Below the pieces are notes generated by a model. It was not told the DNA's origin and ran no database searches. It saw only the letters and a list, made by a program, of their open reading frames with translations. A DNA stretch of 64,000 nt from assembly GCF_058153355.1 (NCBI RefSeq), contig NZ_CM177019.1, one strand, 5' to 3'. Made by a program: the position numbers and the translations under genes. Shown in pieces: positions 1 through 30,115 of the stretch. Numbering within the stretch: the first letter of the stretch is position 1; each line of letters starts with the position of its first letter.

Positions 1-596
1 AGATAGCCAGTGGTATCCCCGGTCGGGCGGCTGTTGGCATTGGGTTTGATCACAATATTCGGTTTGGTAAAGTGAGCTCGCGGCAACGGCGCAACAGCCG
101 CCAAATCGCCATGTTTTTTACGCAGCTCGTCGATAGGGCCAAAATCCAGCGCCCGCAGCGGGCAAGATTCAACACAGATCGGCTTCTTCCCCTCCGCAAC
201 ACGGTCATAACAACCATCACATTTGGTCATATGGCCTTTCGTTTCGTTATATTGCGGTGCGCCATACGGGCAAGCCATATGGCAGTAACGGCAGCCAATG
301 CATACATCTTCATCGACCACAACAAAACCATCTTCACGTTTATGCATCGCACCGCTCGGGCAGACTTTAGTACAAGCCGGATCTTCGCAGTGGTTACATG
401 AAATCGACAGATAGTAGGCAAACACGTTCTGGTGCCAGACACCGTTATCTTCCTGCCAGTCGCCGCCAGCATATTCATAAATGCGGCGGAAACTGACTTC
501 TGGCGTCAAATCTTTGTAGTCTTTACAAGCCAGCTCGCAGGTTTTGCAACCGGTGCAACGGCTGGAATCAATAAAAAATCCATACTGGGTTGTCAT
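1..596 (-). CDS. dmsB: DMSO reductase iron-sulfur subunit DmsB, 3' end cut by window edge
   Basis: Minus-strand frame open from ATG at 596 to window start; I translated MTTQYGFFIDSSRCTGCKTCELACKDYKDLTPEVSFRRI by hand; starts 10 bp downstream of the dmsA stop. Confidence 0.9.
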   Translation of the reverse strand, partial: MTTQYGFFIDSSRCTGCKTCELACKDYKDLTPEVSFRRIYEYAGGDWQEDNGVWHQNVFAYYLSISCNHCEDPACTKVCPSGAMHKREDGFVVVDEDVCIGCRYCHMACPYGAPQYNETKGHMTKCDGCYDRVAEGKKPICVESCPLRALDFGPIDELRKKHGDLAAVAPLPRAHFTKPNIVIKPNANSRPTGDTTGY

Positions 597-606
597 CGGT
601 TACTCC

Positions 607-3051
607 TTACACCTTTTCAACCTGAACAAGGTTTGTATGTGACGGATTCCCCTTAGCGAGAGGAGACGGACGTTGAGTGGTCAGTACGTTGATACAACCG
701 CCCTTATCGACACGTTTTGCATCCGGGTCATACCAGGCACCTTCACCCAGTGCGACCACACCCGGCATCATTCGTGGCGTCACTTTCGCCTCAATATGAA
801 CCTCACCACGATCGTTAAAGATCCTGACTTTATCGCCGTTGTTGATACCGCGTTTTTGCGCATCAAGCGGGTTGATCCACATTTCCTGACGGCAAGCCGC
901 TTTCAGCACATCAACGTTGCCGTAAGTTGAGTGAACGCGAGATTTATAGTGGAAACCCGTAAGCTGCAGCGGATACTGTTTGTTCAGCGGATCCTGATAA
1001 CTTTCAAAGCCCGGCGTGTAGATCGGCAGTGGATCGATCACATCGCCTTCTGGCAATTCCCAGGTAGCGGCAATGTCAGCCAGCGCCTGCGAATAAATCT
1101 CAATTTTACCCGATGGCGTGGTCAGTGGATTTGCCTGCGGATCTTCACGGAAGGCTTTATAAGCAACGTGATGCCCTTGTGGGTCGCGCTTTTTAAAGAT
1201 CCCCTGCTTGCGGAACTCTTCAAACGTTGGCAGTTCAGGAATCGCTTCCCGCGACTGGGCATACAGATGCCGCATCCACTCTTCCTGTGTACGGCCTTCA
1301 GTAAACTGTTGCTCAACGCCAAGACGTTTTGCCAGTTCGCTGGTCATTTCATAGATGGTCTTACATTCAAAGCGCGGTTTAATCACCTGATCGTTGAAAA
1401 TCACGTAAGACATATTCCCGCAGGATGCATCCAGTGCAAAGTCCATCTGTTCGGAAGCGGTGCAGTCAGGCAGCAGGATGTCAGCATATTTCGCCGATGA
1501 GGTCATGTGGCAGTCGATAACCACAATCAGCTCGCACTTCTTATCATCCTGGAGGATTTCATGGGTACGGTTGATTTCAGAATGCTGGTTAATCAGGCAG
1601 TTACCGGCATAGTTCCAGATCATTTTGATCGGCACATCCAGCTTATCTTTCCCGCGCACTCCATCACGCAGCGCCGTCATTTCCGGACCACGTTCAATCG
1701 CATCGGTCCACATGAACATGGAAATGCTGGTCTGGATCGGGTTTTCGAGGGTAGGCATCCGCACAAACGGTAAGCTGTATGAACCTTCACGCGCGCCGCT
1801 GTTGCCCCCGTTAATACCCACGTTACCGGTCAGAATCGCCAGCATCGAGATAGCACGGGTTGCGATTTCACCGTTAGCGTGACGCTGCGGGCCCCATCCC
1901 TGGCTGATAAACGCCGGTTTGGTACTACCGATTTCACGAGCCAATTTGATGATTTTGTCTGCCGGAACACCGGTGATTTGCGAGGCCCATTCCGGCGTTT
2001 TAGCCACGCCATCTGGCCCTTCACCCAGAATATAAGCTTTATAGTGACCATTTTTCGGCGCACTGGCTGGCAGTGTTTTCTCGTCGTAGCCAACGCAATA
2101 TTTATCGAGGAATGCCTGATCCACCAGGTTTTCGGTGATCATGACATACGCCAGACCGTTAACCAGTGCGGCATCTGTTCCCGGACGAATAGGGATCCAC
2201 TCATCTTCGCGCCCGGCACCGGTGTCGGTATAGCGCGGATCGATAATGATCATACGAGCGTTGGATTTCTGACGAGCCTGCTCAAGGTAATAAGTCACCC
2301 CACCACCGCTCATTCGCGTTTCGCCAGGGTTATTACCAAACAGTACCACCAGCTTACTGTTTTCAATATCTGACGGGCTGTTACCATCCGCCCAGCCACC
2401 GTAGGTATAGTTCAAACCTTCCGCAATTTGCGCGGAAGAGTAGTCACCGTAATGGTTCAGATAACCGCCGCAGCAGTTCATCAGGCGAGCGACCAGGGTA
2501 TTTCCCGGCGGCCAGGAGCGGGTCATGGTGCCGCCCAGCGTACCGGTACCATAGTTCAGATAGATAGACTCGTTGCCGTACTCTTTGATCAGGCGCTGCA
2601 TATTGGTCGCGATGATGTCGTAGGCTTCTTCCCAGCTAATGCGCTCGAATTTGCCTTCACCGCGCGCCCCGACTCGTTTCATCGGATATTTCAGGCGGTC
2701 CGGATTGTAGACACGGCGACGCATGGAACGCCCACGCAGACAGGCGCGCACCTGGTGCAGGCCGTCATAGTTGTCATCGCCGGTATTATCCGTTTCAACA
2801 TATTTAATTTCACCGTCCACAACGTGCATACGTAGCGGGCAGCGGCTACCACAGTTAACTGTACAGGCGCTCCAGATTACCTTTTCGTCTGACTTTGCCG
2901 GAAGGGCACTATCAACAGCGTGCGCAATCCGACTAAAAGGTAATGTTAATGCGCTGCTGGCCATTGCCAGGCCGCCGATCGCTGTCGTTTTTACCAAACC
3001 ACGGCGACTCACCTCAGCAGCCAATACCGCATCAGGGATTTTCGTTTTCAT
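607..3051 (-). CDS. dmsA: DMSO reductase catalytic subunit DmsA (molybdopterin, Tat signal)
   Basis: 814-aa ORF; N-terminus has a twin-arginine signal (SRRGLVK) and Cys cluster; recognised as DmsA. Confidence 0.95.
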   Translation of the reverse strand: MKTKIPDAVLAAEVSRRGLVKTTAIGGLAMASSALTLPFSRIAHAVDSALPAKSDEKVIWSACTVNCGSRCPLRMHVVDGEIKYVETDNTGDDNYDGLHQVRACLRGRSMRRRVYNPDRLKYPMKRVGARGEGKFERISWEEAYDIIATNMQRLIKEYGNESIYLNYGTGTLGGTMTRSWPPGNTLVARLMNCCGGYLNHYGDYSSAQIAEGLNYTYGGWADGNSPSDIENSKLVVLFGNNPGETRMSGGGVTYYLEQARQKSNARMIIIDPRYTDTGAGREDEWIPIRPGTDAALVNGLAYVMITENLVDQAFLDKYCVGYDEKTLPASAPKNGHYKAYILGEGPDGVAKTPEWASQITGVPADKIIKLAREIGSTKPAFISQGWGPQRHANGEIATRAISMLAILTGNVGINGGNSGAREGSYSLPFVRMPTLENPIQTSISMFMWTDAIERGPEMTALRDGVRGKDKLDVPIKMIWNYAGNCLINQHSEINRTHEILQDDKKCELIVVIDCHMTSSAKYADILLPDCTASEQMDFALDASCGNMSYVIFNDQVIKPRFECKTIYEMTSELAKRLGVEQQFTEGRTQEEWMRHLYAQSREAIPELPTFEEFRKQGIFKKRDPQGHHVAYKAFREDPQANPLTTPSGKIEIYSQALADIAATWELPEGDVIDPLPIYTPGFESYQDPLNKQYPLQLTGFHYKSRVHSTYGNVDVLKAACRQEMWINPLDAQKRGINNGDKVRIFNDRGEVHIEAKVTPRMMPGVVALGEGAWYDPDAKRVDKGGCINVLTTQRPSPLAKGNPSHTNLVQVEKV

Positions 3052-3221
3052 AATGGCTCACTCAAGCTTGCTCACGATTGATTCCAGTAACAAACCGTAT
3101 TGTGTAATTATTTCTATAGCAGGTCGCTATATAGGCTTGTATATATCGAATAATTTGAAAATCAAAGAGATATGTAGATTTTCACTCGAAAGTAGTATTA
3201 CGTGTAAGTGAGGAGTAATTA

Positions 3222-3235
3222 TTGTTCGGTATCAA
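3222..3235 (-). promoter_or_regulatory. Candidate FNR box upstream of dmsA (TTGATACCGAACAA on minus strand)
   Basis: Near match to the TTGAT-N4-ATCAA consensus; a TAATAC -10-like hexamer lies about 29-34 nt downstream on the minus strand; dmsABC is known to be FNR-activated. Confidence 0.45.
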
Positions 3236-3243
3236 AGGGAGAC

Positions 3244-3264
3244 AAAAAAAGCGCCCGCAGGCGC
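3244..3264 (-). terminator. Rho-independent terminator downstream of serS
   Basis: GC hairpin GCGCC-TGCG-GGCGC followed by a T-run on the minus strand, just after the serS stop. Confidence 0.55.
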
Positions 3265-3289
3265 TTTTTAGATTCAGAAAAATTGGGTA

Positions 3290-4603
<1,314 letters not shown>

Positions 4604-23736: not shown

Positions 23737-24848
23737 TGTGCAGCTCCTGGTTTGGCCTCACCAATCACCACTTCATCGCCCGCTTCCAGCCCTTTGACAA
23801 TCTCAACATCGGTATCGTTACGTGCGCCAATCGTCACTTCACGCTCGCGTGTTTCACCATTACGCAACAATTTGACTTTATAACGATTATCGCCAACCGG
23901 ATCGCCTAACGCCGACAGAGGGATCGTCAGCACATTTTTCACATCGGTGAGCTGAATATGCACTTGCGCGGTCATATCCAGCCGCAGCAAACCATTGGGG
24001 TTGGGTACTTCAAAACGGGCGTAATAGAAAATAGCGTCGTTAACCTTATCCGGCGTCGGTAGCACATCCTTGATTTGCCCCTCATAGCGCGTCAGCGGAT
24101 CGCCAAGCACCGTAAACCAGGCTTTTTGCCCCGGCTTCAGGTGGATTACATCCGCTTCAGAAACCTGCGCTTTTACCAGCATGGTGCTCATATCTGCCAG
24201 CGTCAGAATGTTCGGTGCTTGTTGTGCGGCAATCACCGTCTGGCCTTGCAGAGTGGTGATTTGCGTGACTTCCCCGGCCATCGGGGCAACGATGCGGGTG
24301 TAATCGAGATTGGTTTTAGCCGTATCGAGTGAGGCCTGATTGCGCTTGATTTGCGCGTCAATGGTGCCAATTTGCGCCTGTTTCACAGCCATCTCCGTCG
24401 CGGCGGTATCGAGATCCTGCTGTGAAACCGCCTGCGTTTGTGCAAGACGTTGCTGACGGGAATACGTCACCCGCGCCAGTTTCAGTTCCGCTTCCGCCTG
24501 CTGACGCTGCGCGCGCAACTCCATCAACGTTGCTTCCACTTCTTTGATCTGGTTTTCAGCCTGTTCAGGATCAATAACACCTAAAAGTTGGTCTTTTTTT
24601 ACTTTATCGCCAATCGCCACCGACAGCGTTTTCAACTGACCGCTGACCTGTGCACCCACGTCAACCTTACGCAGCGCGTCCAGCTTTCCGGTCGCCAGCA
24701 CGCTTTGCTGTAAATCACCGGGGCGCACAATCAGCGTCTGATAAGTCGGCACGGGTGCGTTAAGAATTCTCCATAACGCAATCAGTCCGGCAATGATTAT
24801 CACCAGCGCAATAACGTAACGCTTCTTCACGGTTTTCCGCTTTTTCAT
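23733..24848 (-). CDS. macA: Macrolide exporter periplasmic adaptor MacA
   Basis: Start moved to [15 protein letters not shown] (371 aa); membrane-fusion coiled coil; overlaps macB by 4 bp. Confidence 0.94.
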
Positions 24849-24962
24849 AAATATTCTGAATACTCCATATGCCAATCCGGGTCATTAACTTCAACGAAAT
24901 ATCAACAAAACCCTAAAATTTACGTTAGTAATCACACTATTGATGTTTGGTTAAGATACGCC

Positions 24963-25955
24963 ATGGTGAAATTGACGTTATGTATAGCCATTGATTTCAT
25001 GAATATGTCGCAGCTAACTGAACGGACCTTTACGCCATCTGACTCTCTCAGCAGCCTGTCACTTTTTCTTAGCCTGGCACGTGGACAGTGTCGGCCGGGT
25101 AAATTTTGGCATCGCCGTAGTTTTCGCCAGAAATTTTTGCTGCGCTCGTTGATTATGCCGCGTTTAAGCGTTGAGTGGATGAACGAACTTTCCCACTGGC
25201 CTAATCTCCATGTGTTGTTAACGCGCCAGCCGCGACTGCCTGTGCGTCTGCATCGCCCTTACCTTGCGGCGAATCTTAGCCGCAAGCAATTGCTGGAGGC
25301 GTTACGTTACCATTATGCATTGCTCCGTGCCTGCATGTCGGCAGAAGAATTCAGCTTATATTTGAATACTCCCGGGCTGCAACTGGCGAAGCTGGAAGGC
25401 AAAAACGGCGAGCAGTTCACACTTGAGCTGACCATGATGATCTCAATGGATAAAGAAGGTGACAGCACAATCCTGTTCCGCAACAGCGAAGGTATTCCTC
25501 TGGCAGAGATCACCTTTACTCTGTGTGAATACCAGGGGAAAAGAACAATGTTTATTGGCGGGCTGCAAGGTGCGAAATGGGAAATTCCACATCAGGAAAT
25601 CCAGAATGCGACGAAAGCCTGCCACGGGCTATTTCCCAAACGTCTCGTGATGGAAGCGGCCTGTCTGTTTGCCCAACGTTTGCAGGTAGAGCAGATCATT
25701 GCCGTCAGCAATGAAACGCATATTTACCGCAGCCTGCGTTATCGCGATAAAGAGGGCAAGATCCATGCAGATTACAACGCTTTCTGGGAATCGGTTGGCG
25801 GCGTATGTGACGCTGAACGCCATTACCGCCTTCCGGCACAGATAGCACGAAAAGAGATTGCCGAAATCGCCAGTAAAAAACGGGCTGAATATCGTCGGCG
25901 CTATGAGATGCTCGACACTATTCAGCCACAAATGGCCACGATGTTTTGTAGTTAA
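24963..25955 (+). CDS. ybjX: VirK/YbjX-family protein (DUF535)
   Basis: 330-aa ORF in the conserved position between macA and ybjD; exact start uncertain. Confidence 0.85.
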   Translation: MVKLTLCIAIDFMNMSQLTERTFTPSDSLSSLSLFLSLARGQCRPGKFWHRRSFRQKFLLRSLIMPRLSVEWMNELSHWPNLHVLLTRQPRLPVRLHRPYLAANLSRKQLLEALRYHYALLRACMSAEEFSLYLNTPGLQLAKLEGKNGEQFTLELTMMISMDKEGDSTILFRNSEGIPLAEITFTLCEYQGKRTMFIGGLQGAKWEIPHQEIQNATKACHGLFPKRLVMEAACLFAQRLQVEQIIAVSNETHIYRSLRYRDKEGKIHADYNAFWESVGGVCDAERHYRLPAQIARKEIAEIASKKRAEYRRRYEMLDTIQPQMATMFCS

Positions 25956-27610
25956 TCTGCCCGACCGCGCGCCAGCCACAGCACGCGTGAGAACATTTTT
26001 TTCAGCAGCGTCGGTACGGAGTCCACACCACGACGGCCGGCCTCCATTGCCACTTCAATGGCAAGATCGGGTTTGGAAGAGCGATGGATCGCTTTCGAGA
26101 TAATTTTACGCAGATTCATCGGCACATTTTCCGGGATCTGCGCCACGCGGTGGAACACATCGGAAAATCCCTGGCGATACATAAAATGTTCCATATCCAG
26201 CGCCGGTAACGCCGTTAAATGTTCTCGTTCGGCTTCCCGATCGTTATTCAACAGGCTGCGTACCGTAGCGGCATACTTCTTCCCGGCTTCATCGCCATCG
26301 ACCAGTACATGCCATTCAATCCCCATTCGACGGGCAAATTTAACCAGTGGCTTTAGCCCGGACTGGGCAAACTCAATGACCTTGATCCCTTCGGCATCAA
26401 AATGATGTCCACACTGACGCGCCAGTTCATTGATAACCCAGGTTTCCGTTTCGCCTTCCACCAGCAGCCAGCAGCGAGCAAACAGCGATGACGGACGGTT
26501 AAAACGAATGTGGAAAGAGATACGTCGGCTGTCTTCGGTACTCAAGCCACTCGGCCCCAGACGCCAGGCGGCAACGCGAGAGGACTCACGTACCAGACGG
26601 CAAACATGCTCTACCGGCGTTAACGAAAGCAACTCACCCGAGTTGGTGGTGGCAATGCGCTGCAATGGCAGAAGATTCAACAGATGCCAGGCAACTGAAA
26701 GCATAATAGGGTGTAAACGCGTTTCTGGATCTTCAATCAGCAATAATGGACGTGCGTCTTTATCCAGCCGCAATGTGCCTTTTGCCTGCAATAAAGTAGC
26801 AAACAGGCCGAGCAAAATAACCCGATACGAGCGCCCTCCAGGCCGGTCAATCATCCGGTTGATGATATCCAGATAGCGCCAGCTTCGTTGCTCATTACTG
26901 GCCCGCCGCCGCATTAAACGATATCGCGCTTGTCCAGCCCCCTGCTCAGAGAAATAATGCTCAAGCAGCTGCACCATTGCGGAAAGTCCCTGACGAATCT
27001 GTCCATCAGAGAGATTTTGCGGATGTGAGGATAACTCACGGGCGAGGAAATCGAGCTGGCGCGCGGTGACTTCCACATTAGGGACATTTGGCACCGTGCC
27101 GCTACGAATACGGCGCATAAAGCGGGCATCACGCAAGCGCAACACCGGCATTAAACGCACCAGATGGCGTGCCTGATCGTTAATATCCTCGACATCAATC
27201 GGATGTCCGTCTTTATCGAGAAAACTGCGGAGTGTCATCACACTGCCATCTTCCGCACTCTCCCCTTCCAGGCGATAAAAAATTCGATGATAACCATCGG
27301 TGCATGGCGTCCAGCATGCTTCCAACGGTCGATAGCGGCGTACCCGATGACGGCCTGGCAGCGATTCGCGGAAGGTCAAAATAATATGCAGATGATGTTC
27401 CCGCCCGTTGATATCTCCCGGCGGAAACCAGAAATCGTCGCGCTCAAAATGGTAGAGATCTGATTCTGGCGATAGCAGCAGGGTTAAGGCGTCCAGCAAG
27501 CTGGATTTACCCCACGCGTTCTCCCCAATCAGGACGTTGTTTTGTTCCAGCATCAACGATAAACGGTTGATACCGCGAAAACCCACAATTTCAACGCGCT
27601 CAAGAATCAT
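25952..27610 (-). CDS. ybjD: OLD-family ATP-dependent nuclease-like protein YbjD
   Basis: 552-aa ORF; N-terminal P-loop ATPase (GENAWGKSS), C-terminal Toprim-like region; conserved position. Confidence 0.9.
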   Translation of the reverse strand: MILERVEIVGFRGINRLSLMLEQNNVLIGENAWGKSSLLDALTLLLSPESDLYHFERDDFWFPPGDINGREHHLHIILTFRESLPGRHRVRRYRPLEACWTPCTDGYHRIFYRLEGESAEDGSVMTLRSFLDKDGHPIDVEDINDQARHLVRLMPVLRLRDARFMRRIRSGTVPNVPNVEVTARQLDFLARELSSHPQNLSDGQIRQGLSAMVQLLEHYFSEQGAGQARYRLMRRRASNEQRSWRYLDIINRMIDRPGGRSYRVILLGLFATLLQAKGTLRLDKDARPLLLIEDPETRLHPIMLSVAWHLLNLLPLQRIATTNSGELLSLTPVEHVCRLVRESSRVAAWRLGPSGLSTEDSRRISFHIRFNRPSSLFARCWLLVEGETETWVINELARQCGHHFDAEGIKVIEFAQSGLKPLVKFARRMGIEWHVLVDGDEAGKKYAATVRSLLNNDREAEREHLTALPALDMEHFMYRQGFSDVFHRVAQIPENVPMNLRKIISKAIHRSSKPDLAIEVAMEAGRRGVDSVPTLLKKMFSRVLWLARGRAD

Positions 27611-28035
27611 ATCCCCTCCAGAAATATGTGACTTATCCTTTACGCTGGCAGTATAACGGGAAAGGCCTTGCTAATACGTGATGACATCACATTTAAGCAT
27701 GGCAAATGTCTGAAAAATGAGCGAATAATCGCGTTATACTCCCTCTTGCTGATAAGTCTGCAAAAACAACAAAATCAAATAATTAGCATGATAAATTATT
27801 TTTTATTACGCCTAAAGGATTAAATCTTTTGCTTGCACTACACTGTCAATCAGACAAATGACTATATGGGGCAACCCGCTGTTGCCCTAAATCAAATTTA
27901 CTGGATTTATTTATCTGGTGAATGACTCGCCTTCGTTTTTAAAATAGCCGCGCATTATTTCCGTCGTCACTTTTTTACGACGCCCCTATAAAACGACCAT
28001 ATTTTTCACAGGGTCAATTTTTAATTGAGGTGGAT

Positions 28036-28731
28036 ATGTTCAGAAAATTAGCAGCTGAATGTTTTGGTACTTTCTGGCTTGTTTTTGGTGGCTGTGGTAG
28101 TGCCGTACTGGCCGCAGGCTTCCCGGAATTAGGCATTGGTTTTACCGGCGTAGCGCTGGCATTCGGTTTAACCGTTCTGACGATGGCCTTCGCTGTTGGT
28201 CATATTTCTGGTGGTCATTTTAACCCGGCGGTCACTATTGGCTTATGGGCTGGCGGACGTTTTCCGACAAAAGAAGTCGTTGGCTACGTAATTGCCCAGG
28301 TTGTCGGCGGTATTGTTGCAGCGGCGCTGCTGTATTTAATTGCCAGTGGTAAAACGGGTTTTGACGCGGCAGCCAGCGGCTTTGCTTCTAACGGTTATGG
28401 CGAGCATTCACCAGGCGGTTATTCCATGCTTTCCGCGCTGGTGGTTGAACTGGTATTGAGTGCAGGTTTCCTGCTGGTGATCCACGGCGCAACCGACAAA
28501 TTCGCTCCGGCGGGTTTTGCACCAATTGCCATTGGTCTGGCATTAACCCTGATTCACTTAATCAGTATTCCGGTGACTAACACTTCTGTTAACCCGGCGC
28601 GCAGTACTGCGGTTGCCATCTTCCAGGGCGGCTGGGCGTTAGAACAACTGTGGTTCTTCTGGGTAGTGCCAATTATCGGCGGTATTATCGGTGGTCTGAT
28701 TTACCGGACTCTGCTGGAAAAACGTAATTAA
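28036..28731 (+). CDS. aqpZ: Aquaporin Z
   Basis: ORF track starts at GTG 28030; the ATG at 28036 gives [19 protein letters not shown]; two NPA motifs. Confidence 0.95.
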
Positions 28732-28741
28732 TTAACGCAGA

Positions 28742-28769
28742 AGGCCTGGCGCAATGTCAGGCCTTTTTT
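28742..28769 (+). terminator. Rho-independent terminator after aqpZ
   Basis: AGGCCTG-loop-CAGGCCT hairpin followed by T6. Confidence 0.65.
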
Positions 28770-29215
28770 AAATATATTGATTCATCTTCCTGTTGCGCTC
28801 CTTGATGTGTTAAGCCACATATAGTCACTGGCGCAGGGAGCGCGCAGGGGGCGGCCAATCGCCGCCGCCCCCTGCACCCCCGGGCTCTGGCGAACAAAAT
28901 CGCCGCTGCGCGGTGCCCTCGACTTATCCCTTGCGGCTACCGGGTCGGGCGCGAGGTAACATCCCGGTAAAACGCGCCCTCAGCCCACATCCATGTGGGC
29001 TGCCCCGGCCTTCAGGGAACGCCTCGGCGATTTTGACGCCACCAACACCGGTGCGGTTTGTAATTAAAGCGCAAGAATATCTTTAAATGAAAATGAATAC
29101 CCTACCGATCCTTATGCATAACATTTCCTTTTAATTGCAACTTTACTCGTCCTTCCGCTTTCAGTAGTGTGTCATCGCGCATTTCGACTTCTTTCTTTGC
29201 AAGGACTGGTTTTTC

Positions 29216-30115
29216 ATGTTTTCTGGGCTGTTAATCATTCTGGTTCCCCTGATTGTGGGTTACCTCATTCCGCTTCGCCAAAAAGCTGCATTAAAAGTTA
29301 TTAATCAGCTATTAAGTTGGATGGTTTACCTCATTCTCTTTTTTATGGGTATCAGTCTGGCGTTTCTCGATAACCTCGCCAGTAACCTGTTGGCGATTCT
29401 GCATTATTCCGCCGTCAGTATTACCGTTATTTTACTGTGTAATATTGCCGCACTGATGTGGCTGGAGCGAGGCCTGCCGTGGCGCAACCACCATCAGCAA
29501 GAAAAACTCCCGTCACGTATTGCGATGGCGCTGGAGTCCCTCAAGCTCTGCGGTGTGGTGGTGATTGGCTTTGCTATTGGCCTTAGCGGATTAGGTTTCT
29601 TACAACACGCTACGGAAGCCAGCGAATACACGTTAATTCTGCTACTTTTCCTCGTCGGTATTCAGTTGCGCAATAATGGCATGACCTTAAAGCAGATTGT
29701 CCTTAATCGCCGGGGAATGATTGTCGCCGTGGTGGTGGTTGCCAGTTCATTAATTGGTGGTTTAATTAACGCCTTTATTCTTGATCTTCCCATCAATACC
29801 GCGCTGGCAATGGCATCCGGTTTCGGCTGGTATTCTCTTTCCGGTATTTTATTGACCGAATCTTTTGGTCCGGTAATCGGGAGCGCGGCGTTTTTTAATG
29901 ATTTGGCCCGTGAGCTGATTGCTATTATGTTGATCCCTGGGCTGATTCGCCGTAGCCGCTCGACTGCACTGGGCTTATGCGGTGCAACCTCGATGGATTT
30001 CACCCTGCCCGTTCTTCAACGTACTGGCGGGCTGGATATGGTCCCGGCGGCGATTGTTCACGGTTTTATTCTCAGCCTGTTAGTACCTATCCTCATCGCC
30101 TTTTTCTCCGCGTAA
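29216..30115 (+). CDS. lysO: Lysine exporter LysO (YbjE)
   Basis: 299-aa polytopic membrane ORF in the conserved position. Confidence 0.9.
   Translation: MFSGLLIILVPLIVGYLIPLRQKAALKVINQLLSWMVYLILFFMGISLAFLDNLASNLLAILHYSAVSITVILLCNIAALMWLERGLPWRNHHQQEKLPSRIAMALESLKLCGVVVIGFAIGLSGLGFLQHATEASEYTLILLLFLVGIQLRNNGMTLKQIVLNRRGMIVAVVVVASSLIGGLINAFILDLPINTALAMASGFGWYSLSGILLTESFGPVIGSAAFFNDLARELIAIMLIPGLIRRSRSTALGLCGATSMDFTLPVLQRTGGLDMVPAAIVHGFILSLLVPILIAFFSA

Follow-up and report, generated by a model that had tools for sequence, protein, structure and literature searches.

The ybjD locus

The window, by which we mean the whole 64-kb stretch of DNA analysed here, contains a 552-codon open reading frame with an ATG start, located on the minus strand exactly where the first-pass annotation had placed ybjD (Table 1). 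This frame is the E. coli ybjD gene, recently renamed oldB, and its product shares 99.5–99.8% protein identity with the listed E. coli YbjD records. The gene is surrounded by macB, macA, ybjX, aqpZ, lysO and hcp, of which aqpZ and ybjX are its immediate neighbours. None of these neighbours encodes a helicase, a reverse transcriptase or a separate Toprim protein, and in the RefSeq neighbourhood ybjD lies outside any defence island. The window gene is the published YbjD/OldB: its neighbours, including the convergent ybjX, are those already described, and it differs from the published gene in no respect of kind.

At its 3' end, ybjD meets ybjX in a TTAA tetranucleotide that supplies one TAA stop codon to each strand. 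The 4-bp overlap with ybjX that had been described from the sequence is thus present, although it requires refinement: the genes run convergently, 3' end to 3' end, and not in the manner of an operon, so that neither co-translation nor an operon is implied.

At the 5' end, an alignment of the upstream regions of 13 genera retains CCG(C/T)TATACTGC from Escherichia to Mangrovibacter. The TATACT hexamer is a putative promoter element, as judged from its conservation; we relied on this cross-genus signal because a consensus promoter scan returned fewer promoter-like sites than were found in shuffled sequences. No palindrome, for instance a LexA box, is conserved in the same alignment. No structured RNA family of Rfam was detected between 24000 and 30000, and the repeats between 24800 and 28100 are short and at chance level, with no array and no terminal repeats.

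Table 1. Positions of the genes, motifs and domains described in the text (window coordinates)
Feature	Position	Strand	Basis
ybjX (VirK/YbjX, DUF535), convergent neighbour, not a required partner	24999..25955	+	DUF535 343 bits; annotation
TTAA, stop codons common to ybjD and ybjX	25952..25955	.	sequence; same 4-bp overlap in RefSeq
ybjD (oldB) CDS, 552 aa + stop	25952..27610	-	ORF list; RefSeq annotation as ybjD
C-terminal region, Toprim + C-terminal helical domain, residues 378-552	25952..26479	-	Pfam; model
S-K513-P, invariant lysine at start of C-terminal helix, candidate catalytic lysine	26069..26077	-	translation; conservation
Putative metal-B motif D472-M-E474	26189..26197	-	translation; conservation
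Toprim DxD, DGD (D438, D440)	26291..26299	-	translation; conservation
Toprim glutamates EGETE (E385, E387, E389)	26444..26458	-	translation; conservation
N-terminal ABC-type ATPase region, residues 1-377 (Pfam DUF2813)	26480..27610	-	Pfam; AF2 model
H-loop TTNS, Asn323 instead of the usual His	26639..26650	-	translation; conservation
Walker B + D-loop LLLIEDPETRLHP (E293, E296, H300)	26708..26746	-	translation; conservation
Helical insertion in ATPase, residues ~177-277, presumed dimerisation domain	26780..27082	-	AF2 model
Walker A GENAWGKS (K35)	27503..27526	-	translation; conservation
Shine-Dalgarno GGAGG	27615..27619	-	sequence reading; kept across upstream alignment
-10-like hexamer TATACT, conserved	27650..27655	-	40 nt upstream of ybjD ATG; upstream alignment

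Domain architecture and conserved motifs

The P-loop ATPase plus Toprim architecture proposed by the first-pass annotation is borne out by Pfam matches and by the conserved motifs read from the DNA (GENAWGKS, LLLIEDPETRLHP, EGETE, DGD, DME and SKP). DUF2813 matches residues 1–375 with 534 bits, together with short P-loop matches to AAA_15, AAA_21 and SMC_N, which are of the ABC/SMC type. The following residues 376–440 match OLD-like_TOPRIM (PF20469) with 59.8 bits against a cutoff of 23.2. Residue conservation was evaluated in an alignment of 63 family representatives, which share 27–54% identity with the window protein. The catalytic residues are invariant or nearly so across these representatives, and a set of 79 Enterobacterales sequences from as many species, 78 of them intact ORFs, shows no substitution at any nuclease or ATP-site residue.

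In the AlphaFold2 (AF2) model, most of the ATPase core has a pLDDT above 90. Within the Walker A motif, G29 and E30 are invariant in the family and K35 is found in 57 of the 63 members, while all three are invariant in the Enterobacterales set. In the Walker B and D-loop segment, E293, E296 and H300 are retained in 58, 59 and 62 of the 63 members, respectively, and a profile alignment sets LLLIEDPETRLHP opposite E276 and H283 of Thermus scotoductus OLD (Ts OLD). The H-loop carries an asparagine where GajA and Ts OLD have THS; among the family members this position is N in 38, H in 10 and Q in 9, and N is invariant in the 79 Enterobacterales sequences. In Ts OLD, the H310A mutation abolishes ATPase activity. 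An H-loop asparagine is also known in other Class 1 OLDs, and it may still permit hydrolysis in YbjD. The ATPase is interrupted by an insertion modelled as helices 177–195, 202–220, 227–233, 241–255 and 259–277, with low confidence at residues 170–176 and 223–241 and moderate to low confidence within the insertion. By analogy with the Ts OLD domain described in PMC7049728, this insertion may serve in dimerisation.

The model of residues 352–552 has a pLDDT of 94 and displays four C-terminal helices after the Toprim domain. The family alignment shows no variation at E385, G386 or E387 and at least 90% conservation of E389; EGETE aligns with VEGDAE of Burkholderia pseudomallei OLD (Bp OLD), that is, with E400 and E404. 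The DGD motif, in which D440 is invariant and D438 at least 90% conserved, aligns with the DxD of Bp OLD, Ts OLD and Xanthomonas campestris OLD (Xcc OLD). Further downstream lie the invariant E474 and, with at least 90% conservation, D472; their [S/T/D]-x-E form suggests that they are the equivalents of S478/E480 in Ts OLD, D541/E543 in P2 Old and T506/E508 in Bp OLD.

The position of the candidate catalytic basic residue sets YbjD apart from Ts OLD and P2 Old. The residue at +7 from the metal-B glutamate, where these two enzymes have theirs, is a glycine in YbjD. K513 and P514 are invariant, and K513, the sole invariant basic residue after E474, follows it by 39 residues, a distance resembling the Class 2 spacing (E508 to K562 in Bp OLD). 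Whole-domain superposition and this spacing both point to K513 as the candidate counterpart of the catalytic K562. A residue-level mapping of the C-terminal helical domain onto Bp OLD failed because the sequence profiles align no further than the DxD motif, leaving the whole-domain superposition as the sole support for that mapping.

OLD-family membership and class

YbjD was used as an OLD family seed by Schiltz et al. (2019; PMC6755086), and its assignment to the family by the first-pass annotation agrees with both sequence and fold. YbjD is a genuine OLD-family member: its ABC-type domain carries Walker A, Walker B and the D-loop, its Toprim domain has the conserved glutamate and DxD, and the predicted fold includes the helical insertion in the ATPase. 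The full-length AF2 model (pLDDT 88) finds GajA, Ts OLD and the retron Eco8 OLD as its best Foldseek matches, with E values of 1e-14 to 1e-19. By analogy with these homologues, YbjD would be expected to have nuclease activity, to bind and hydrolyse ATP, and to form an oligomer.

By context, YbjD belongs to Class 1. It is a single gene without a partner, as had been stated for the window, and this holds in the RefSeq neighbourhood, at 80 enterobacterial loci (screened for the window's neighbour genes) and at 6 distant loci (called genes inspected), where neither a helicase nor any other conserved partner gene was found. Each of these six distant DUF2813 relatives is solitary among housekeeping genes. 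Like YbjD, the Class 1 enzymes (P2 Old; Ts OLD, 6P74; Vibrio cholerae OLD, Vc OLD) stand alone, share the two-domain plan and have the D-loop histidine. However, Ts OLD lacks the C-terminal helical domain and has its catalytic Arg/Lys 7 residues after the metal-B glutamate, whereas in YbjD that domain is present and the +7 position lacks a conserved basic residue. The settings differ too: ybjD is a core, syntenic gene, P2 Old is carried by a prophage, and Vc OLD has been considered in connection with mobile defence elements.

The C-terminal region, as modelled, superposes best on Class 2 structures. Its TM-score is 0.66–0.70 to 6nk8 and 6njw over ~205 columns, and 6njx also superposes, as compared to 0.37 for Ts OLD (6p74). 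The Class 2 OLD/GajA proteins (B. pseudomallei and X. campestris OLD, 6NK8 and 6NJV-X; Bacillus cereus GajA, 8SM3) have, like YbjD, an ABC ATPase, a Toprim domain and a C-terminal helical domain, with the catalytic lysine (a candidate in YbjD, where the equivalence of K513 to K562 is proposed) far downstream of the metal-B glutamate. GajA cleavage is inhibited by ATP, and in YbjD, too, ATP appears to have a restraining effect. Unlike YbjD, GajA has an adjacent UvrD-like helicase, GajB, which defines the class; moreover, ybjD is neither mobile nor in a defence island, and sequence identity to the Class 2 proteins is only 12–18%. In profile searches, the YbjD family profile scores 82 bits with Ts OLD, its best full-length match, and 73 bits with GajA, while the GajA HMMs of PADLOC are the best defence-model matches (267 bits, versus 84 bits for the Old model). 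Published trees nest Class 2 within Class 1.

The remaining classes do not fit. Class 3 comprises retron effectors, and ybjD has no Rfam family in 24000–30000 and no reverse transcriptase ORF among its neighbours. In place of the AriA/AriB pair of Class 4 (PARIS), there is a single 552-aa ORF with both domains, and the match of AriA to YbjD is confined to the P-loop.

Distribution, synteny and selection

Of 5426 complete E. coli genomes, 5424 carry the ybjD region, at 95–99% identity and labelled 'ybjD: ATP-dependent endonuclease', in keeping with its earlier description as a core-genome gene. In contrast, an accessory low-GC gene of the same window occurs in 1128 of the 5426. Identity is 99% in Escherichia, 90–91% in Citrobacter and Salmonella, 84–86% in Klebsiella and Enterobacter, and 66–69% in Serratia and Pectobacterium, and declines further beyond these: Yersinia retains 65%, Proteus 56%, Aeromonas 45%, and Vibrio and Photobacterium 40–44%. 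Relatives of YbjD are found in Vibrionaceae, Aeromonas and some Betaproteobacteria. The gene order hcp-lysO-(aqpZ)-ybjD-(ybjX)-macAB is conserved across the enterobacterial loci. With identity falling along the taxonomy, ybjD appears to have been vertically inherited at one locus throughout the Enterobacterales.

The dN/dS of ybjD is 0.017 against E. albertii and 0.03–0.07 against other genera, of which the E. albertii value alone is reliable, as dS is saturated for the more divergent genera. dN is lower in the C-terminal region than in the ATPase (0.005 versus 0.016, and 0.046 versus 0.074). Among five genes of the neighbourhood, ybjD has the lowest dN against E. albertii; against Salmonella and Citrobacter, only hcp is lower (together with macA in Citrobacter).

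The gene does not appear to be mobile. Among 50,697 phage records the sole match was P2 old, with 28% identity over part of the protein, and 2.9 million viral contigs yielded only two ybjD loci. One of these, an identical match that had seemed to be a viral copy, is host flank beside an insertion beyond aqpZ. Apparent plasmid copies among the listed matches of at least 40% identity were mostly records of 0.5–5 Mb, which are likely chromosomes or chromids; the exceptions among these listed matches are five plasmid records of 42–145 kb, in which ybjD lies beside ybjX as on the chromosome. No member of the ybjD clade was found on a bona fide plasmid among the matches inspected. A mobile defence gene is expected to be patchily distributed, to reside in islands, prophages or plasmids and to be transferred horizontally, and ybjD shows no such pattern.

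Published phenotypes of YbjD

A literature search on DUF2813, b0876 and oldB returned one 2026 paper (Atahualpa 2026; PMC13261556) and otherwise unrelated matches. Elsewhere, ybjD figures as a landmark for insertions or as an entry in expression tables, and its induction by a cathelicidin peptide has been reported. The gene, its family and the plaque-assay check proposed by the first-pass annotation are already in the literature; the synteny, selection, mobility and C-terminal-region analyses presented here extend the published description.

In the 2026 study, the ybjD transcript was found in K-12, and deletion of the gene caused no change for 68 BASEL phages. Arabinose-induced YbjD lowered the plaquing of Bas18 and Bas20 and reduced the plaque size of Bas64–68. 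The plaque assay thus gave no phage phenotype upon deletion and a modest anti-phage effect upon overexpression. The Toprim domain was dispensable for this effect: neither Toprim point mutants nor a Toprim deletion made a difference in the assays. The K35A mutant kept the anti-phage effect and was more toxic. At higher induction YbjD was cytotoxic, in a manner independent of RecBC, in which it differs from P2 Old.

A parallel is offered by Cran1, an OLD-family ATPase of the Sulfolobales (PMC12796447). As for YbjD, its protein tree follows the species tree, and in both proteins it is the ATPase, not the nuclease, that matters in the assays done; Cran1 is apparently no defence gene. On the other hand, Cran1 is archaeal and essential and forms a separate clade (U11), whereas YbjD is non-essential and is not known to act in the cell cycle.

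Alternative explanations

The convergent overlap raises the question of ybjX, with which ybjD might form a two-gene module, either functional or mutually exclusive in the manner of an excludon. The genes share 4 bp of stop codons, the terminator scan returned weak intragenic sites only and none between them, and the pair is among 165 convergent excludons derived from RNA-seq (PMC12288877). However, of the 74 enterobacterial loci extending to the downstream side, ~18 lack ybjX while keeping ybjD, the two genes lie ~1.1 kb apart in Kluyvera, and a DUF535 neighbour is present at none of the 6 distant DUF2813 loci. ybjX also evolves far faster, with identities of 46–74% where ybjD has 80–91% and a dN against Salmonella of 0.36, as compared to 0.065 for ybjD. 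Since ybjX is often absent and evolves quickly, we rejected it as a partner. Transcriptional interference may occur in E. coli, yet it cannot account for the function of the YbjD protein, and a functional partnership is largely refuted. Only slightly less improbable is a chromosomal split Gabija-like system, in which a GajA-type nuclease without adjacent GajB would work in trans with an SF1 helicase (UvrD, Rep or HelD). The Class 2 type of the C-terminal region, the GajA models as best PADLOC matches and the placement of Class 2 inside Class 1 in published trees are consistent with it, and against it stand the lack of an adjacent helicase at 80 enterobacterial loci (screened for the window's neighbour genes) and in 6 distant contexts (called genes inspected) and a family profile that is, at full length, about equally far from Ts OLD and Bacillus GajA. 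A lack of any reported deletion phenotype, and a Class-2-like protein without its helicase partner, might also suggest a decaying orphan, the remnant of a former Gabija/OLD system with no selected function. The conservation data already refute this reading: each of the 78 full-length orthologues, all from different species, is intact and keeps all the catalytic residues, dN/dS is 0.017–0.07, and the transcript is detected in K-12.

A more serious contender, which we nevertheless regard as unlikely, is that YbjD is a dedicated stand-alone anti-phage Class 1 OLD like P2 Old and Vc OLD, which senses infection, then kills the cell or damages phage nucleic acid, and happens to be fixed in the core genome. 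Its OLD-family membership and the plaquing, plaque-size and cytotoxic effects of induced YbjD (PMC13261556) argue for this, and the protection given by Vc OLD at its native locus is likewise modest. On the other side, deletion is neutral for 68 phages, and the overexpression effect persists without the Toprim domain and without the Walker A lysine, both of which P2 Old requires. The near-universal, syntenic and vertical inheritance of ybjD at a dN/dS of ~0.02, its absence from phages, viral contigs and bona fide plasmids among the matches inspected, and its position outside a defence island are atypical of defence genes. What favours an immune role should be kept in view: the sole published YbjD phenotype is anti-phage, a core location is compatible with immunity, and a defence role might come to light only with phages beyond the BASEL set or in other settings. 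The Toprim mutants and deletion, without effect in the only assays done, count against a role of the nuclease.

Proposed function of YbjD

As a whole, the data are best explained by YbjD being an intact OLD enzyme in a distinct, solitary and chromosomal DUF2813 clade, for which resident surveillance or maintenance is likelier than mobile defence; we assign this reading a probability of roughly 65%. Purifying selection on the nuclease half is strong and ancient, which suggests that the nuclease is used in the selected function. Since the published anti-phage effect is independent of the nuclease, the native role is likelier to be nucleic-acid surveillance or maintenance than classical mobile defence.

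The mechanism that we envisage is mostly inferred. YbjD would oligomerise through the helical insertion and bind ATP at the Walker A/B site, and would probably hydrolyse it poorly because the H-loop histidine is replaced by asparagine. ATP binding would keep the enzyme restrained. On release, the nucleotide-free ATPase heads would engage nucleic acid, and the Toprim site would then nick or cleave it by two-metal catalysis involving E385/E389/D438/D440 and D472/E474, with the Class-2-type C-terminal helical domain contributing K513 as the presumptive catalytic lysine.

More tentatively, and at odds that we would put below even, the DUF2813 clade including YbjD could have no immune function and instead represent a housekeeping nuclease of ancient origin, passed down vertically in Gammaproteobacteria and some Betaproteobacteria: a GajA-like enzyme without a helicase, gated by ATP binding and not by hydrolysis, which acts on the cell's own DNA or RNA. 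It would act, for example, on stalled or aberrant replication or recombination intermediates, or at times of low nucleotides, and by analogy YbjD would be the bacterial counterpart of archaeal Cran1. The clade may resemble the resident ancestor of the mobile Gabija-type systems.

OLD nucleases have been studied almost wholly as effectors of phage defence, and the pattern of ybjD is the opposite: it is universal, syntenic, slow-evolving and off mobile elements. The sole reported phenotype of YbjD bypasses the most conserved half of the protein. If its native role were found, one of the E. coli core genes still lacking characterisation would gain a function, and it would become clear whether bacteria have housekeeping relatives of Gabija-type immune nucleases, as Cran1 suggests is the case in archaea.

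The ybjD gene and its surroundings

The first-pass annotation placed ybjD at limits that coincide exactly with an open reading frame on the minus strand. The 4-bp overlap that it reported with ybjX is also real, being visible both in the sequence and in RefSeq, and it is convergent. Since ybjX, on the plus strand, ends at 25955, the two genes have a TTAA palindrome in common; the overlap is tail-to-tail and is no operon junction. The pair is included among 165 convergent transcriptional overlaps detected by ExcludonFinder (PMC12288877).

Features of ybjD and of a probable accessory gene in the window
Feature	Position	Strand	Remarks
ybjD ORF	25952..27610	-	552 codons, ATG start
TTAA palindrome	25952-25955	both	TAA stop on each strand, common to ybjD and ybjX
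Shine-Dalgarno GGAGG	27615-27619	-	5' of the ybjD ATG
TATACT, candidate -10 element	27650-27655	-	40 nt upstream of the ybjD ATG
Walker A GENAWGKS	K35	-	read from the DNA
Walker B and D-loop LLLIEDPETRLHP	E293 (Walker B), H300 (D-loop)	-	read from the DNA
H-loop position TTNS	26639-26650, residues 321-324	-	Asn323; read from the DNA
EGETE, DGD, DME and SKP motifs		-	each read from the DNA
594-aa ORF	39691-41475	-	32%-GC island, low-GC block 40001-42000, between ybjQ-like and ybjP-like genes

A megablast search with 24900-28000 found the ybjD region in 5424 of 5426 complete E. coli genomes, at 95-99% identity, with the annotations 'ybjD: ATP-dependent endonuclease' and 'ybjX: VirK/YbjX family protein'. 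In the RefSeq annotation of the best match, the gene order is clpA-clpS-cspD-macB-macA-ybjX-ybjD-aqpZ-lysO-hcp-hcr-poxB, with the identical 4-bp overlap. Searches for Rfam families, repeat arrays and intrinsic terminators found none associated with ybjD. Upstream of the gene, the TATACT hexamer lies inside CCG(C/T)TATACTGC, which is kept from Escherichia to Mangrovibacter, in at least nine enterobacterial genera. Because this segment is conserved while the rest of the aqpZ-ybjD spacer varies, the hexamer is a likely -10 element; the upstream alignment across genera contained no conserved operator-like palindrome. K-12 transcribes ybjD (Atahualpa et al. 2026, PMC13261556), and ybjD is among the genes increased in UPEC by a cathelicidin-derived peptide (1.31 in the paper's units), a value that does not distinguish sense-strand transcription from ybjX read-through (PMC6737244).

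The best nucleotide identity of the region to any of these complete genomes is 98.8%, and the same strains (EC42405, 2013C-4282 and WL297) are closest in 24900-28000 and in 39500-42100; the window therefore appears to come from a less-sampled E. coli lineage. Synonymous divergence of the ybjD region from one E. coli species representative is 0.19-0.45. The 594-aa ORF, 12 kb from ybjD, offers an internal contrast, occurring in 1128 of the 5426 genomes, mostly as alleles 80-90% identical. Given this distribution and allele divergence, it appears to be an accessory gene gained by horizontal transfer. Its pentapeptide-repeat matches are weak, and it may resemble EspX-type pentapeptide-repeat effectors.

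YbjD has the OLD-family architecture

The proposed P-loop ATPase plus Toprim-like architecture was borne out by Pfam domains, profile matches, model fold and motifs alike, and the membership of YbjD in the OLD family is secure. DUF2813 covers residues 1-375 (534 bits) and OLD-like_TOPRIM residues 376-440 (59.8 bits), with short P-loop matches to AAA_15, AAA_21 and SMC_N. Among PADLOC models, those for GajA match best (PDLC00094, 267 bits), ahead of the Old model at 84 bits, while NCBIfam has no equivalog for YbjD and gives P-loop-level matches only. When the YbjD sequence alone is the query, solved OLD structures come up as very remote matches (E about 1e-4); a profile built from 63 members of the family reaches Thermus scotoductus (Ts) OLD at 82 bits and Bacillus GajA at 73 bits, with most of the length aligned. 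An AlphaFold2 model built from the 63-member alignment (mean pLDDT 88, pTM 0.87) has GajA, Ts OLD and retron Eco8 OLD as its nearest full-length PDB matches (E 1e-14 to 1e-19). In the model, the ATPase has a helical insertion where Ts OLD carries its dimerisation domain.

The H-loop His of ABC ATPases is Asn in all 79 Enterobacterales sequences, and Asn also prevails among the 63 family representatives (38, as compared to His in 10 and Gln in 9). In Ts OLD the H-loop His is essential for ATP hydrolysis, the H310A mutation abolishing ATPase activity, and Class 1 OLD homologues often have Asn in its stead. By analogy, the Asn of YbjD suggests ATP binding with little turnover.

A Class-2-like nuclease module in a Class 1 context

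By gene context, the defining criterion, YbjD is Class 1, because an adjoining helicase, retron or split partner is absent, in keeping with its earlier description as a single gene without an obvious partner. Structural comparison with Class 1 OLDs, which the first-pass annotation had proposed, bore this out only in part: the full-length fold matches Ts OLD, but the C-terminal region does not (TM 0.37), and Class 2 fits it better. When residues 352-552 were modelled on their own (pLDDT 94), the closest superpositions were with the C-terminal regions of the Class 2 structures 6NK8, 6NJW and 6NJX (TM 0.66-0.70 over about 205 columns); the TM to Bacillus GajA was about 0.5-0.55. The C-terminal sequence profiles of YbjD likewise score 34 and 31 bits for Burkholderia pseudomallei (Bp) and Xanthomonas campestris OLD, as compared to 22 bits for Ts OLD.

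In Class 2 OLDs, an extra helical domain in the C-terminal region provides the catalytic lysine (in Bp OLD, T506/E508 are followed by K562), whereas Ts OLD lacks this domain and uses R487, seven residues past E480; P2 Old uses K550, seven residues past E543. YbjD and its family have D472-x-E474 as their metal-B-type motif, with a glycine that never varies at position +7. Further downstream, K513 alone among the basic residues is invariant. It lies where a helix begins, and its spacing and the whole-domain superposition suggest that it is the counterpart of Bp OLD K562. As modelled, the nuclease module is thus Class-2-like despite the Class 1 context, a combination that agrees with published trees placing Class 2 inside Class 1.

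ybjD has the profile of an old resident gene

An exhaustive HMMER search over 1.84 billion cluster representatives returned 1974 relatives at E<=1e-3 and 335 at E<=1e-30, many of them full-length, 30-55% identical and with both Pfam domains in common. In one-genome-per-species data, the best 80 loci are all from Enterobacterales, and identity declines with taxonomic distance: Escherichia 99%, E. albertii 97%, Citrobacter and Salmonella 90-91%, Klebsiella and Enterobacter 84-86%, Buttiauxella and Cedecea about 80%, Mangrovibacter and Siccibacter 75-78%, and Serratia, Pectobacterium and Brenneria 66-69%. A tblastn search of PLSDB extended the series to Yersinia (65%), Proteus (56%), Aeromonas (45%) and Vibrio, Salinivibrio and Photobacterium (40-44%), below which identity falls abruptly to <=28%, in partial matches on real plasmids.

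The order hcp-lysO-(aqpZ)-ybjD-(ybjX)-macA-macB is maintained across Enterobacteriaceae, ybjD being constant and aqpZ and ybjX variably present. Across the 80 loci, ybjX is 46-74% identical where ybjD, macA and macB are 80-91% identical; dN against Salmonella is 0.36 for ybjX and 0.065 for ybjD, and ybjX has disappeared from several lineages, among them Klebsiella, Raoultella and Superficieibacter. For ybjD, comparison with E. albertii gives a dN/dS of 0.017, and comparisons with other genera, in which dS is saturated, give 0.03-0.07. Among five neighbourhood genes, ybjD has the lowest dN against E. albertii; only hcp is lower against Salmonella, and hcp and macA against Citrobacter. The C-terminal nuclease region has a lower dN than the ATPase region (0.005 versus 0.016; 0.046 versus 0.074). 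None of the 78 full-length orthologues, taken from different species, is disrupted, and every ATP-site and nuclease-site residue is invariant among them, Asn323 included. These conservation data exclude a decaying remnant.

Among 50,697 phage records, the sole match is P2 old (28%, residues 252-440). A search of 2.9 million viral contigs gave two ybjD-like loci: the first is host sequence next to an insertion that lies past aqpZ, and the second is 31% identical. The first, positions 1-3766 of an IMG/VR contig (L089), carries ybjX-ybjD-aqpZ at 94-96% nucleotide identity to the window. In the comparison with the window from 28734 onward, it diverges just past aqpZ, so an insertion, perhaps a prophage, seems to separate aqpZ from lysO in some strains. 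Distant DUF2813 genes, six in all (Vibrio hibernica, Chitinilyticum and several MAGs), are each solitary, beside housekeeping genes such as folE, moeA, ftsZ-lpxC, polA, cysS, the his operon, pfkA, ung or a sulfate transporter, and no helicase or recognisable defence gene lies near them. Conservation, synteny, selection and the mobility data thus give ybjD the profile of an old resident gene, contrary to that of a mobile defence module. Giant DUF2813 members of 1046-1867 aa (P0153, P0162, P0163, P0165, P0175 and others) have long C-terminal extensions and large insertions between Walker A and the rest of the ATPase, where SMC and Rad50 have coiled coils.

Native role of YbjD

In view of earlier papers, the gene, its family and the suggested phage experiment are already known. 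YbjD (b0876) was the query defining the OLD family, with E. coli placed among stand-alone 'Class 1' genes (Schiltz et al. 2019, PMC6755086), and the suggested plaque assays with deletion and overexpression are those of Atahualpa et al. 2026 (PMC13261556). In that study, the Keio deletion left susceptibility to 68 BASEL phages unchanged, and arabinose-induced ybjD gave fewer plaques of Bas18 and Bas20 and smaller plaques of Bas64-68. The effect survived Toprim point mutants and loss of residues 378-552 and was removed by ATPase deletion; K35A kept it with higher toxicity. Unlike P2 Old, YbjD did not kill a recBC(ts) strain. The name oldB was proposed there.

Family membership and the overexpression phenotype make a fixed stand-alone defence gene plausible, yet we consider it rather improbable, since three things speak against it: the deletion without effect on phages, an overexpression effect that does without Toprim, and the evolutionary profile. 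A partnership with ybjX is contradicted, because ybjX is often absent, evolves fast and is missing from distant loci. A Gabija-like YbjD using a housekeeping SF1 helicase in trans is possible but has no support. The strongest selection falls on the nuclease half, the part that the phage assay does without; the assay therefore probably misses the selected function. A resident role in nucleic-acid surveillance or maintenance is somewhat more probable than a classical defence against phages.

The ATP-binding and two-metal nuclease motifs of YbjD are intact and strongly selected, and in GajA, DNA binding and cleavage are inhibited by ATP. YbjD is most likely an oligomeric nuclease held back by ATP, which the H-loop Asn probably keeps bound and slowly turned over. 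Heads with ATP bound would hold it away from its substrate, and heads free of nucleotide would clamp nucleic acid. The toxicity and the phage inhibition that overexpression brings about without Toprim could be due to such clamping by itself, and at native levels clamping would license Toprim cleavage. The residual interest lies in the native function of a universally conserved OLD nuclease, to which the mismatch between the context-based class and the Class-2-type nuclease module adds slightly.
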